A stretch of 64,000 nucleotides of DNA from Escherichia coli (GCF_009931435.1 NZ_CP043414.1); one strand, 5' to 3'. Counted from the stretch's first letter, positions 13,032 to 21,143 are shown. Notes: generated by a model from the sequence alone, not told the origin. Translations and numbers: made by a program.

Positions 13032-13934
13032 ATGGCTTATCAATCTCAAGATATCATTCGTCGTTCCGCGACTAACGGTCTGACCCCCGCGCCTCAGGCG
13101 CGGGACTTCCAGGAAGAAGTGGCGAAACTCATCGACGTCACCACCTGTATCGGCTGTAAAGCCTGTCAGGTGGCGTGTTCAGAGTGGAACGACATTCGCG
13201 ATACCGTCGGCAATAACATTGGGGTGTACGACAACCCCAATGATTTAAGCGCCAAATCGTGGACGGTGATGCGCTTCTCGGAAGTGGAGCAGAACGACAA
13301 ACTGGAATGGCTGATCCGTAAAGACGGCTGTATGCACTGTTCCGATCCAGGCTGCCTGAAAGCGTGTCCGGCGGAAGGGGCAATTATTCAGTATGCCAAC
13401 GGTATCGTCGACTTCCAGTCCGAGCAGTGCATTGGTTGCGGTTATTGCATTGCGGGCTGTCCGTTCGACATTCCGCGCCTCAACCCGGAAGACAACCGCG
13501 TTTATAAATGTACGCTGTGCGTTGACCGCGTGGTGGTTGGGCAAGAACCGGCCTGCGTGAAGACCTGCCCAACGGGCGCGATTCACTTCGGTACGAAAGA
13601 GTCGATGAAAACGCTGGCGAGCGAGCGCGTGGCGGAGCTGAAAACTCGCGGTTACGACAATGCGGGTCTGTACGATCCGGCAGGCGTGGGTGGTACACAC
13701 GTTATGTACGTGCTGCACCATGCTGACAAGCCAAATCTGTATCATGGCTTGCCGGAGAACCCGGAAATCAGCGAAACCGTGAAATTCTGGAAAGGCATCT
13801 GGAAACCGCTCGCAGCTGTTGGCTTTGCGGCTACCTTCGCAGCCAGTATCTTCCACTACGTGGGTGTCGGTCCGAACCGTGCGGATGAGGAAGAGAATAA
13901 TCTGCACGAAGAGAAAGACGAGGAGCGCAAATGA
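13032..13934 (+). CDS. fdoH: Formate dehydrogenase-O iron-sulfur (beta) subunit
   Basis: 300 aa ORF with multiple CxxCxxCxxxCP ferredoxin motifs and a C-terminal TM segment; follows fdoG. Confidence 0.95.
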
Positions 13935-14566
13935 AACGACGTGACACCATCGTGCGCTACACCGCGCCGGAACGTATCAACCACTGGATCACCGCCTTCT
14001 GCTTCATCCTGGCGGCGGTGAGCGGGCTGGGCTTTTTGTTCCCTTCCTTCAACTGGTTGATGCAAATCATGGGCACACCGCAGCTGGCGCGCATTCTGCA
14101 CCCGTTTGTCGGCGTGGTTATGTTTGCCTCGTTCATCATCATGTTTTTCCGTTACTGGCATCACAACCTAATCAATCGGGATGATATCTTTTGGGCGAAG
14201 AATATTCGTAAGATCGTCGTCAACGAGGAAGTAGGTGATACCGGGCGTTATAACTTCGGTCAGAAATGCGTTTTCTGGGCGGCGATTATTTTCCTGGTTC
14301 TGCTGCTGGTGAGCGGCGTGATTATCTGGCGTCCTTATTTTGCGCCTGCTTTCTCAATCCCGGTGATCCGATTCGCGTTAATGCTGCATTCATTTGCCGC
14401 AGTGGCGTTAATTGTGGTTATCATGGTGCATATCTACGCCGCCCTTTGGGTGAAAGGCACGATTACCGCCATGGTGGAAGGATGGGTTACTAGCGCATGG
14501 GCGAAGAAACATCACCCACGCTGGTACCGTGAGGTCCGCAAGACAACGGAAAAGAAAGCTGAATGA
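13931..14566 (+). CDS. fdoI: Formate dehydrogenase-O cytochrome b556 (gamma) subunit
   Basis: 211 aa membrane ORF; start overlaps fdoH stop (ATGA). Confidence 0.95.
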
Positions 14567-15492
14567 GTATTCGCATAATCCCGCAAGATGAGCTGGGTTC
14601 GAGCGAGAAACGTACGGCGGATATGATTCCGCCGTTATTGTTCCCTCGGCTCAAAAATTTATACAACCGCCGCGCCGAGCGTCTGCGCGAGCTGGCAGAA
14701 AATAATCCGCTGGGTGATTACCTGCGTTTTGCTGCGCTTATCGCCCACGCCCAGGAAGTGGTGCTGTACGACCATCCGCTGGAGATGGATCTGACCGCGC
14801 GCATTAAAGAAGCCAGCGCACAGGGCAAGCCACCGCTGGATATTCACGTTTTGCCGCGTGATAAGCACTGGCAAAAGCTGCTGATGGCAATGATTGCTGA
14901 GCTGAAACCTGAAATGAGCGGCCCCGCGCTGGCAGTGATTGAGAATCTGGAGAAGGCATCAAGCCAGGAGCTGGAAGATATGGCCAGCGCGCTGTTCGCC
15001 TCTGATTTCTCGTCCGTCAGCAGCGATAAAGCGCCGTTTATCTGGGCCGCACTGTCGCTCTACTGGGCGCAGATGGCCAATCTGATCCCCGGCAAAGCCC
15101 GCGCTGAATATGGCGAACAACGTCAATATTGCCCGGTTTGTGGTTCTATGCCGGTGTCCAGCATGGTGCAAATTGGCACCACTCAGGGGCTGCGTTATCT
15201 GCACTGCAACCTGTGTGAAACCGAATGGCACGTAGTGCGCGTAAAATGCAGCAATTGTGAACAGAGCGGCAAACTGCATTACTGGTCGCTGGATGACGAA
15301 CAGGCCGCGATTAAAGCCGAAAGCTGCGATGACTGCGGCACTTACCTGAAGATTCTTTATCAGGAAAAAGAGCCGAAAGTTGAAGCCGTGGCAGATGACC
15401 TCGCCTCTCTGGTACTGGATGCGCGAATGGAGCAAGAAGGCTACGCCCGCAGTTCCATCAACCCGTTCCTGTTTCCGGGTGAAGGGGAGTAA
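14563..15492 (+). CDS. fdhE: Formate dehydrogenase formation protein FdhE
   Basis: 309 aa ORF with CPVCG / CNLCETEWH / CSNCE / CDDCG cysteine pairs; start overlaps fdoI stop. Confidence 0.95.
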
Positions 15493-15580
15493 TCTCTGAC
15501 GTTTTCCGGGTGGCGCAGGTCGCCCGGATTACAGCTCATAGGGTGTGACGATACCTGCTATTCCCGCAAAATCTCTCGTA

Positions 15581-15625
15581 TTTTGCGAGGCGTTTTCCAG
15601 ATACGATGTAACAATTGCAGTTATT
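15581..15625. repeat. Copy A of an imperfect ~45 bp direct repeat (partner at 16031-16075)
   Basis: TTTTGCGAGGCGTTTTCCAGATACGATGTAACAATTGCAGTTATT versus copy B TTTTGCGAGACGTTTTCCAGAAATAATAAGAACGTTGCAGTTGTT; about 34 of 45 positions identical by manual alignment. Confidence 0.5.
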
Positions 15626-15707
15626 ATAAGTTCAAGTAAAACAACCTTGTATTAATACCAGAATAAGGACATCTGGTTTTTTATATTCAAGAATAAAAAA
15701 TTTTTTG

Positions 15708-18820: not shown

Positions 18821-18846
18821 GAGAGAGGCAGCACCGCCCCTCTCCA
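18821..18846 (-). terminator. Hairpin immediately downstream of yiiD stop (putative yiiD terminator)
   Basis: GAGAGG (18823-18828) / CCTCTC (18839-18844) inverted repeat with a 10 nt loop, directly 3' of the yiiD stop at 18851-18853; weak U-tract. Confidence 0.35.
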
Positions 18847-18850
18847 TCAG

Positions 18851-19840
18851 CTACTCTTCTTCGTTCCCGCCCTCTTCATACGGGCCAAATGGCTTCGCGG
18901 GCAGAACGATATACGTGCCTTCAAACACCGCCCCCGGCGTCTCGTCGCCAAAGATTTCGACCTGCATCTGCACCCGTGCTTTACGTCCGCGCGCCAGACG
19001 GTCGAGATCGCCGCTTAAGGCACCGAGGTCGGCTACCGCGTGTGGTTTACCGCTGATTGGTTTGCTGTAACGGATATGCGCATCAGCGAGAATAATGGTT
19101 CCGCCGAGGTGGCGTTCGCGCAGCATTAGCCAGATAAGCCCCCAACCGGTGAGCGTAGCCAGCGAGAATAAACTCCCGGCAAACAGCGTGTGGTGCGGAT
19201 TCTGATTGCCGGTTTCCGGCATGGTGGTGATAAATTTTTGCCCGGTATATTGCTGAATGCGCACGCCCATTTTTTCGCTTAGCGGGATATGTTCGTACCA
19301 CGCCTGTTGCAGCTGCGCGCACCAGTCGCCGCGATGCAGAATGTCATCCAGAGTGGCGACAGGTTTTATCATCAAAAAATGGCGAATCGGCGTAGTGGTT
19401 GGCGTGGTGATTTCTCCCTGATTAACAAACCCCAGCTTGGCGAAAAACTCCACCGCGTCTTCGCGGGCGCTACAGGTCACGCGCTTAACACCTTCCTGAC
19501 GCGCCACCGACTCCAGAGTCATCGCCATCAGCGTTCCTAACCCTTTGTCCTGCACGTCGGGATGAACGGCCATAAAGCGAATGGACGCTTCATTGTCGGC
19601 ATTAATATACAGTCGGCCTACCGCCACCAGATTACCCTGCTCGTCGACGACCATCTGGTGATGCGCCATCGCATCCCACGCGTCGCGTTCCGAACCTTTC
19701 GGTTGATGCAGGGGCTTACGCAACATTTCCCAGCGAAACTGATAGTAACGCTCTAATTCTTCTTCTGTTTGTGGAACCCGAAGGTGATACATAGCGATAC
19801 TCTCTCTTGTTTCCCGTGACAACCCTGGAAGCTGGCTCAT
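18851..19840 (-). CDS. yiiD: Acetyltransferase / thioesterase-domain protein YiiD (FabY)
   Basis: 329 aa [44 protein letters not shown]...; GNAT-like N-terminal half; first gene of the yiiD-dtd-rbn-yihX run. Confidence 0.9.
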
Positions 19841-20274
19841 ACCTGCAACCAGAATGTTACGGGGCCATCATTGACCAGCGATACCTGCATATCCGCAGCG
19901 AAGCGTCCTGTTTGCGTGTTCATCTCTTGCTGACGGCAGCGTTCGACGAAATAGTCATATAACGCCTCTGCGCGATCCGGTGATGCGCCTTTGGAGAAAC
20001 TTGGGCGCATCCCCCGTTCGGTATCTGCGGCGAGGGTAAACTGGGAAACCACCAGCACACTGCCGCCCGCCTGTTGCACGTTGAGATTCATCTTGCCTTC
20101 GGCATCGCTGAAGATGCGATAGCCAAGCACGCGCTCGCACAGACGGTTTGCTTTCTGTTCGTCGTCATCCTTTTCGACACCCAATAACACCAAAAGTCCC
20201 GCGCCAATTTCGCCCGTCACTTCTCCCTCCACGGTGACGCTGGCACGGGTTACGCGTTGAATTAATGCAATCAT
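19837..20274 (-). CDS. dtd: D-aminoacyl-tRNA deacylase
   Basis: 145 aa [43 protein letters not shown]... recognised as Dtd; overlaps neighbours by 4 nt. Confidence 0.95.
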
Positions 20275-21143
20275 GGTTCGTCGTCTTCTTCTTGTTCAGC
20301 TGCTTGTTTTAGTTTGCGGTATTCCCCGAGAGTGACAGTAATTTCCGCGCCAAGCAAGACGATACACCATGTCCAGTAGACCCAGACAAAGAGAATGGGG
20401 ATCACCGCCAGCACGCCGTAAATGAGCTGGTATGACGGGAACATGGTGATATAAAGCGCGAAACCTTTCTTTCCTGCTTCGAACAGGAGTGCGGCGACAA
20501 ACGCACCGACAATCGCGTCGCGGTTAGGTACGCGAATGGTAGGAACAATGCTGTAGAGCAACCAAAAGGAGATCCACGACAACAACAGCGGAAAAATACG
20601 CAGCACATTGTCAATGACAGTATTGAGATCGCTTGCCCAACGCAGAGAGAGCAGATAGGAGCTGATCGCCAGACTGGCCCCTGCCAGCAGCGGCCCCAGC
20701 GTTAAAATCATCCAGTACACGGCAAACGAGTAAATTTTTGGTCGCGCTCGTTTACTGCGCCAGATGGTATTCAATGCGCTATCGATGGAGTACATCAGCA
20801 ATAATGCTGTGACGATCAGCCCGCACGCCCCGACGGCGGTCATTTTGTTGGAATTGGCGACAAACTGTTCGATATATCGCTGGATAACATCGCCAGTAGC
20901 AGGCAGAAAGTTGGCAAAAATAAAGTGACGCAACTGAATGCTGACGTCCGAAAACATGGGAAACGCGGCGAAAAGCGCAAAAACAACGGCAACCAGCGGC
21001 ACTAATGAGAGCAACGACACATAGGCAAGATTACCTGCCAGGGTTGTCATATTGTCCTCATCAATGCGTTGCCAGAGTAGTTTTAGCCAGGCCCATAGCG
21101 GACGGGTACGGTGCCTGGCTTTGTCCTGAATGTTTTTTAGCAT
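20271..21143 (-). CDS. yihY: Inner-membrane protein YihY (historically annotated as rbn / RNase BN)
   Basis: 290 aa polytopic membrane ORF between yihX and dtd. Confidence 0.9.

Follow-up and report, generated by a model that had tools for sequence, protein, structure and literature searches.

The window examined here is a stretch of 64,000 nucleotides (nt) of Escherichia coli DNA. Its positions 13000-23000 hold the fdoGHI-fdhE and yihX-yihY-dtd-fabY region, in which neighbouring genes of the same orientation meet at very short stop/start overlaps. The best complete E. coli genomes match this region at 98.6% identity, and the part of the window that was compared with K-12 MG1655 (5785-64000) is collinear with it at 95.5-98.7% identity. 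The fdo genes lie on the plus strand in the order fdoG-fdoH-fdoI-fdhE, with 97.7% identity to K-12 over 13000-15555. The other unit is transcribed from the minus strand in the order yihX, yihY, dtd, fabY; an initial annotation of the same DNA had listed it in reverse, as yiiD-dtd-yihY-yihX. fabY is the gene formerly called yiiD and also known as madA. The genes that meet at the junctions are real genes and not chance open reading frames (ORFs), because they are 96-98% identical to their K-12 counterparts and contain Pfam domains. The coordinates of all features are collected in Table 1.

Each of the five junctions was read straight from the sequence and has an overlap of the NTGA or short-overlap class. 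fdoH and fdoI share the tetranucleotide ATGA at 13931-13934, made of the TGA of fdoH and the ATG of fdoI, and fdoI and fdhE share another at 14563-14566, so that both pairs overlap by 4 nt. On the minus strand the TGA of yihY and the ATG of dtd form an ATGA at 20274-20271, and the TAA of yihX and the ATG of yihY lie within a 7-nt overlap, ATGCTAA, at 21137-21143. These four overlaps agree with those described in the initial annotation. The fifth, for which a 4-nt overlap of yiiD and dtd had been given, is contingent on the choice of the fabY start. The TGA of dtd shares ATGA (19837-19840) with ATG1 of a 329-amino-acid fabY ORF, which is the form in the curated K-12 record, whereas RefSeq and the Prokaryotic Genome Annotation Pipeline (PGAP) start a 313-amino-acid protein at a second ATG (ATG2, 19792-19790, encoding Met17 of the long form), which leaves a gap of 44 nt to dtd. 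The possibility that revised start codons remove the overlaps, raised by the initial annotation itself, applies to dtd/fabY alone, through Met17.

Table 1. Position, strand and main characteristics of the features discussed (window coordinates; aa, amino acids)
Feature	Position	Strand	Description	Source
fdoH	13032-13934	+	formate dehydrogenase-O beta subunit, 300 aa; stop TGA 13932-13934	ORF list, RefSeq and K-12 annotation, sequence
fdoI	13931-14566	+	gamma subunit, 211 aa; ATG 13931-13933, stop TGA 14564-14566	
fdhE	14563-15492	+	309 aa; ATG 14563-14565	
Low-GC variable segment	15550-18850	.	holds yiiE and the 605/617-aa ORF; K-12 gene yiiF missing	
yiiE	15708-15926	-	within variable segment	
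Extra DNA relative to K-12	16324-18370	.	2,047 bp missing from K-12	
Large ORF	16621-18474	-	617 aa (start GTG 18474) or 605 aa (start ATG 18438)	
Terminator-like hairpin	18821-18844	-	10-bp stem with 6 G-C pairs, then AUUCUUUCAGG; starts 7 nt after fabY stop	
fabY/yiiD/madA long ORF	18851-19840	-	329 aa from ATG1 19840-19838	K-12 annotation
fabY ATG2 (Met17)	19790-19792	-	313-aa start in PGAP (WP_001297068.1)	
Purine-rich AAGAGAGAG	19800-19808	-	7 nt 5' of fabY ATG2; likely Shine-Dalgarno sequence, -4.8 kcal/mol	
dtd	19837-20274	-	D-aminoacyl-tRNA deacylase, 145 aa; ATG 20274-20272, stop TGA 19839-19837	
yihY	20271-21143	-	BrkB-family membrane protein, 290 aa; ATG 21143-21141, stop TGA 20273-20271	
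yihX	21137-21736	-	glucose-1-phosphatase, 199 aa from ATG 21736; first gene of the unit; stop TAA 21139-21137	

The five overlaps are the kind of tight junction that is ordinary within E. coli transcription units, and both units concerned are known. They are already present in the K-12 annotation and both operons are catalogued, yihXY-dtd-yiiD as a four-gene RegulonDB operon (PMC4421995) and fdoGHI-fdhE as a single operon that has a further promoter within fdoH (PMC11481537). A sequence scan found no consensus promoter or terminator between the genes of the two units beyond chance expectation. Overlaps are also nothing unusual for the genome: of the 33 co-directional pairs in the syntenic 60 kb of K-12, 8 have one (two of -1, four of -4, a single one of -7 and another of -19), and overlapping pairs typically make up about 15% across prokaryotes (PMC6728339). 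Among prokaryotic gene spacings NTGA is easily the most frequent (PMC12548453), and the overlaps as such therefore matter little as a discovery. The only new elements are the evidence for two conserved starts of fabY and the lineage-specific compaction of the yihX operon.

The local base rate was taken from K-12, since the closest complete genome, that of strain 2017-02-2CC (4822-8923, 35019-40568), differs from the window at 7384-8937 and 34516-37836. At these spots that strain carries a pair of genes for a tetratricopeptide repeat protein and an ATP-binding protein adjoining fdhD, and the STM4011-4015 radical-SAM cluster, in which several overlaps of -4 and -8 occur. At both spots the window resembles K-12.

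The conservation of the junctions was followed in 80 loci, all from Enterobacteriaceae, which were obtained by one FabY scan of species-representative genomes and most of which also carry a convergent fdhE-fdoI-fdoH. Stop and start positions were read after tblastn anchoring, and the denominators differ by junction (49-80 loci). ATGA joins fdoH and fdoI in all 49 loci scored and fdoI and fdhE in 55 of 60. The remaining five (L019, L045, L068, L073 and L079, from Citrobacter sedlakii, Pluralibacter and Klebsiella) have spacers of 5, 266, 271, 342 and 1881 nt, with an insert of about 1.9 kb in L068. Between yihY and dtd, ATGA is found in 72 of 77 loci, the other five having TAA, 2 nt and then ATG. 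The 7-nt overlap of yihX and yihY is present in 70 of 75 loci; two of the deviants stand at -4 and one at -1, which is the same frame class, and two are alignment offsets. For dtd and fabY, 72 of the 80 loci were scored directly as ATGA and six more when in-frame indels were allowed, which gives 78; the exceptions are one TTGA and one locus with TAA, 2 nt and then ATG.

In each ATGA the first A is supplied by the upstream gene, whose last sense codon (AAA, GAA, CCA, GTA or ATA) has it as third base, and no synonymous alternative was ever seen at this base. In the Enterobacteriaceae dtd ends in GTA or ATA, and this codon invariably contributes the A of ATG1; over the 19 dtd codons before it, mean entropy at third positions is 0.90 bit. 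Selection acts on the junctions, and they are conserved within the Enterobacteriaceae beyond neutral expectation.

Outside this family the arrangement of the yihX operon is different. In Yersinia the three junctions are spaced by 100, 6 and 73 nt. In Dickeya, Photorhabdus and Erwinia yihY is missing at the locus, and 7-64 nt separate yihX from dtd and 32-134 nt separate dtd from fabY. In all four of these outgroup species the last dtd codon is GTT, GTG or GTC, followed by TAG or TAA and a spacer of 32-134 nt. Three of them have in-frame stops in this dtd-fabY spacer; the fourth, Photorhabdus, has an open frame that lacks an upstream start codon. Since the sister families keep the genes linked but spaced, the gene linkage is old and the compaction into overlaps is specific to the Enterobacteriaceae.

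The strengths of the Shine-Dalgarno (SD) sequences vary within both units. yihX, the first gene of the minus-strand unit, has a strong SD, AAAGGAGG (-11.6 kcal/mol), and those behind it are weak: -3.9 for yihY, -1.9 for dtd, -3.1 for ATG1 of fabY, at zero spacing, and -4.8 for ATG2. This is what would be expected if the downstream cistrons use ribosomes delivered by the upstream one. The values in the fdo unit are -6.6 for fdoH, -8.1 for fdoI, whose SD, GAGGAG, lies 4-5 nt 5' of the ATG, and -3.5 for fdhE. Translational coupling is the reasonable textbook interpretation of such overlaps, and it is partly supported here in that the features of the sequence agree with it. A ribosome ending at the upstream stop codon would already sit on the next start codon or no more than 7 nt from it, where it could re-initiate or unfold the local RNA so that another ribosome loads. 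The genes with poor SDs (yihY, dtd, fdhE and fabY in its long form) would in this way be translated in step with their upstream neighbours. Coupling is reported to be most efficient at spacings between -4 and +3 nt (PMC12548453), and reporter tests showed coupling for four out of five ATGA pairs native to E. coli (PMC6728339). At fdoI/fdhE, long-read RNA data revealed fdhE transcripts while fdoGHI is off (PMC11481537); a transcript from the internal promoter still holds all of fdoI, so that coupling from fdoI to fdhE could still operate. Ordinary operon junctions with coupled translation, together with two starts at fabY, are the best explanation of the data and in our judgement a likely one, the coupling itself being what we infer.

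Of the two modes of coupling, unfolding of the RNA could be pictured at dtd/fabY, where only ribosomes at the end of dtd would open a hairpin that buries ATG1. A 90-nt segment of the window indeed folds at -33.6 kcal/mol with ATG1 in a long imperfect stem (z = -1.75; 9 of 200 shuffled sequences were as stable). However, the consensus fold over 69 Enterobacteriaceae sequences is essentially nil (RNAalifold, -1.37 kcal/mol), compensatory changes occur in two of the ten predicted pairs, and the other junctions have no notable structure (z from -2.2 to +1.4). The hairpin was thus predicted in the window but is not conserved, and it was rejected as a general mechanism; even for dtd/fabY we consider such unfolding very improbable. 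Since no local RNA structure is conserved, re-initiation is the likelier route if coupling occurs.

Several observations weigh against coupled translation as the role of the overlaps. With its good SD, fdoI could initiate by itself. Five species tolerate spacers between fdoI and fdhE, and the sister families are spaced at every junction of the yihX operon, which means that the overlap is not required for function. The dtd/fabY overlap, moreover, competes with a Met17 start that works experimentally. In the reporter study cited above, the fifth pair, bioB/bioF, was not coupled: it has the same ATGA, and bioF initiates de novo despite the overlap (PMC6728339). It can serve as the model for a different explanation, in which the overlaps are neutral by-products of compaction without a regulatory role and the downstream genes are initiated de novo. 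A start codon followed by A already supplies a TGA in the +1 frame, and upstream ORFs could readily drift to end there; dtd, fdoI, fdhE and fabY at ATG1 begin with ATGA by virtue of their own second codons (Ile, Lys, Ser and Ser), even behind spacers. The -4 spacing is considered abundant because it evolves easily (PMC12548453). The four products of the yihX operon are functionally unrelated enzymes with no obvious need for a fixed stoichiometry. Overlapping pairs often encode subunits of one complex (PMC10666635), a pattern that fits FdoH and FdoI but not these four. What speaks against neutrality, besides the majority of coupled pairs in the reporter tests, is the contrast between the very weak SDs of dtd, yihY and fdhE and the strong one of yihX, and the fate of fdhE where the overlap was lost: the four long spacers (266-1881 nt) are accompanied by a stronger SD, CAGGAAG, before fdhE. 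This suggests that the overlap had compensated for a weak site, and argues that it does real work for fdhE. A purely neutral origin of the overlaps is in our opinion improbable.

The junctions described here can be compared with systems in which initiation has been studied. The pairs hyfHI, astDB and ydbH/ynbE, as well as menDH, investigated by Huber et al. in 2019 (PMC6728339) are alike in that the genes are co-directional, lie on one transcript and have a 4-nt NTGA overlap, with an SD of variable strength within the upstream ORF. They differ in that they were experimentally found to be coupled by termination-reinitiation, whereas coupling of the five pairs of the window is predicted, and one of them stands at -7. 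The paralogous fdnGHI operon of formate dehydrogenase-N has the same gene order and the same gap of 12 nt between the G and H genes, and the genes for the beta and gamma subunits overlap in both operons, but by 8 nt in fdnH/fdnI and by 4 nt in fdoH/fdoI, and fdn has no fdhE fused at its end. The fabY gene resembles the speA-type genes with two isoforms (Meydan et al., bioRxiv 10.1101/520783), as it has two conserved in-frame starts a few codons apart and two products on gels; unlike in those genes, its upstream start is evolutionarily newer and fused to the preceding gene's stop codon.

Both in-frame starts of fabY are conserved. ATG1 is present in 79 of the 80 loci and replaced by TTG in one, ATG2 is present in all 80, and the frame from ATG1 is open, with no in-frame stop in the extension, in every locus. 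ATG1 is maintained despite obliging dtd to end with a minor Val codon (GTA) or a rare Ile codon (ATA), and in one Pluralibacter genome it is retained, together with the 48-nt ORF, even though the dtd stop is shifted. Three indel events lie between ATG1 and ATG2, of +3, -3 and -12 nt, and all are in frame. The open frame was also considered as coding evidence for the extension but is weak alone, the 45-nt GC-rich stretch being open in another consensus frame too; the case for ATG1 rests instead on its conservation and on the in-frame indels. ATG2 is preceded by the purine-rich AAGAGAGAG, which is conserved at all three codon positions, and the equivalent of Met17 (MYHLRVP...) is the FabY start in all outgroups, namely Yersinia, Dickeya, Photorhabdus and Erwinia. 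Whaley et al. observed two bands upon expression of MadA (YiiD), of which the lower was ascribed to a second start, at Met17, that has a ribosome-binding site of its own; an M17A change left a single product (PMC8666670).

These last observations could also mean that the dtd/fabY overlap is an annotation artefact, FabY being made from Met17 only and the 48 nt upstream being a 5' leader that is open by chance, with the 44-nt gap as the true spacing. PGAP and most gene callers pick Met17, most database homologues have 313 amino acids, and the GNAT domain begins at about residue 19 (PMC8666670; Pfam). Codon periodicity in the extension is weak (entropy by codon position 0.47/0.51/0.69, versus 0.11/0.13/0.73 in the next 20 codons), so that it could be a barely constrained leader. 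The two MadA bands came from a plasmid construct, and prove the use of ATG2 but not that of ATG1 in its native context. Against an artefact stand the retention of ATG1 (or TTG) in all 80 loci at the cost of the unfavourable dtd codon, its persistence in the locus with the shifted stop, and the indels that all preserve the frame; the curated K-12 record also stays with 329 amino acids. On balance we regard an artefact as unlikely, though deserving more weight than a neutral origin of the overlaps in general. The TRAINSPOTTER supplements contain no entry for the fabY/yiiD start, yiiD is unmentioned in the main text of the Ribo-RET study, and a 2026 paper on Salmonella YiiD says nothing on operon structure or start codons.

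The comparative evidence suggests instead that both starts are kept by selection. In our reading, Met17 is the ancestral start of fabY, still active, and ATG1 a derived start; in the Enterobacteriaceae the ancestral spacer has become an open, weakly constrained extension of 16 codons, the first of them an ATG joined to the stop of dtd. fabY probably has two starts, yielding two products. The 329-amino-acid form is probably made by coupling to dtd, because the SD-like AGG of ATG1 has zero spacing, and the 313-amino-acid form would be initiated from its own weak SD. The further step, that long FabY comes only from ribosomes that have just finished dtd and short FabY from the ancestral start, so that translation of dtd would set the ratio of the isoforms or their total amount, is put forward tentatively, as somewhat less than an even chance.

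The DNA between fdhE and fabY, where the two units converge, is of another character. From 15550 to 18850 the GC content is 34-47%, as against about 55% in the flanks, and at least 80% of 16000-18860 is carried by 1061 of 5426 genomes, the segment being highly variable among E. coli. It thus has the atypical composition and the presence/absence polymorphism of an island, but not signatures of insertion (such as flanking direct repeats, an integrase or insertion sequence, or a tRNA target). Neither the 617-amino-acid ORF nor yiiE has an integrase or transposase domain in Pfam or NCBIfam, a search that did not take in the small ORFs of the segment. The junction in K-12 is clean, with no target-site duplication and at most 1 nt of microhomology. 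Of the large ORF, K-12 retains ~68 nt at the 5' end (104 nt from the upstream GTG), and because of this remnant it looks like a 2,047-bp deletion derivative rather than the window like an insertion. Relative to K-12 the window in turn lacks about 600 bp holding yiiF (at 15555-15581).

The initial annotation had placed an inserted island immediately downstream of the terminator of the yihX operon and regarded the operon as intact. This holds only approximately. The ORFs of the operon are intact and low-GC DNA that varies among strains begins at the fabY stop, but the segment that K-12 lacks starts 480 nt further on and looks like a deletion there and not like an insertion in the window, and the terminator-like hairpin (18844-18821) sits inside the variable DNA, being common to K-12 and not to other Escherichia species. 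Homology to E. whittamii stops exactly at the fabY stop, and the sequence 3' of fabY differs in every genus examined. A conserved terminator after fabY was ruled out, as sequences diverge right after the stop codon even between Escherichia species. On the fdhE side, a 7-bp GC-rich hairpin (CCGGGTG...CGCCCGG) without a U-tract is found at 15493-15530 on the plus strand, and a simple scan detected no consensus intrinsic terminator for fdhE.

The large ORF of the variable segment has no sequence match in Pfam, NCBIfam or PDB, and RefSeq labels pieces of it "transposase" or "hypothetical protein". It is present in about 20% of complete E. coli genomes, at 93-99% identity. Exhaustive searching with HMMER recovered a small protein family (585-825 amino acids, 23-37% identity), in the alignment of which Cys500, Asp505 and Arg506 are invariant within GCKSAKDRT. 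This is a CX5R motif, that of inositol polyphosphate 4-phosphatases (PMC3248162), and closely resembles CKSGKDRT, the version in IpgD; when profiles were compared by hhalign, IpgD gave E = 6.4e-5 around the motif. An AlphaFold2 model from a 4-sequence alignment was unusable, with a predicted local distance difference test (pLDDT) score of 33. The model from a 21-sequence alignment was confident (pLDDT 85.9, predicted template modelling score 0.87), and its best matches among solved structures are SopB (E = 7e-8), the Legionella phosphoinositide phosphatases 4jza and 4fyg, and P-Rex1. The ORF is therefore predicted to encode an unannotated SopB/IpgD-like CX5R phosphatase with a SopB-like phosphoinositide-phosphatase fold, and it deserves an evaluation of its own.

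Two further features of the window were noted. The first gene of the fdo unit, fdoG, contains an in-frame selenocysteine TGA at 10554-10556, with a match to Rfam SECIS_3 at 10551-10609 on the plus strand (84.3 bits), which is a known feature; because of this codon the ORF list gives fdoG as a shortened ORF of 804 amino acids. About 1 kb at 27785-28783, between yihR and yihQ, is missing from K-12, and its counterpart in a close genome is a TauE/SafE-family sulfite exporter gene inside the sulfoquinovose cluster.

For the Enterobacteriaceae, the yihX operon represents a clear lineage-specific switch from spaced to overlapping junctions, and it could serve as a natural test set for models of translational coupling. 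The discrepancy between the 329 amino acids of K-12 and the 313 of PGAP is a real disagreement, which matters for anyone expressing or deleting fabY or dtd. If long FabY depended entirely on ribosomes coming from dtd, translation of dtd would set the isoform ratio or the amount of an enzyme of fatty-acid initiation.

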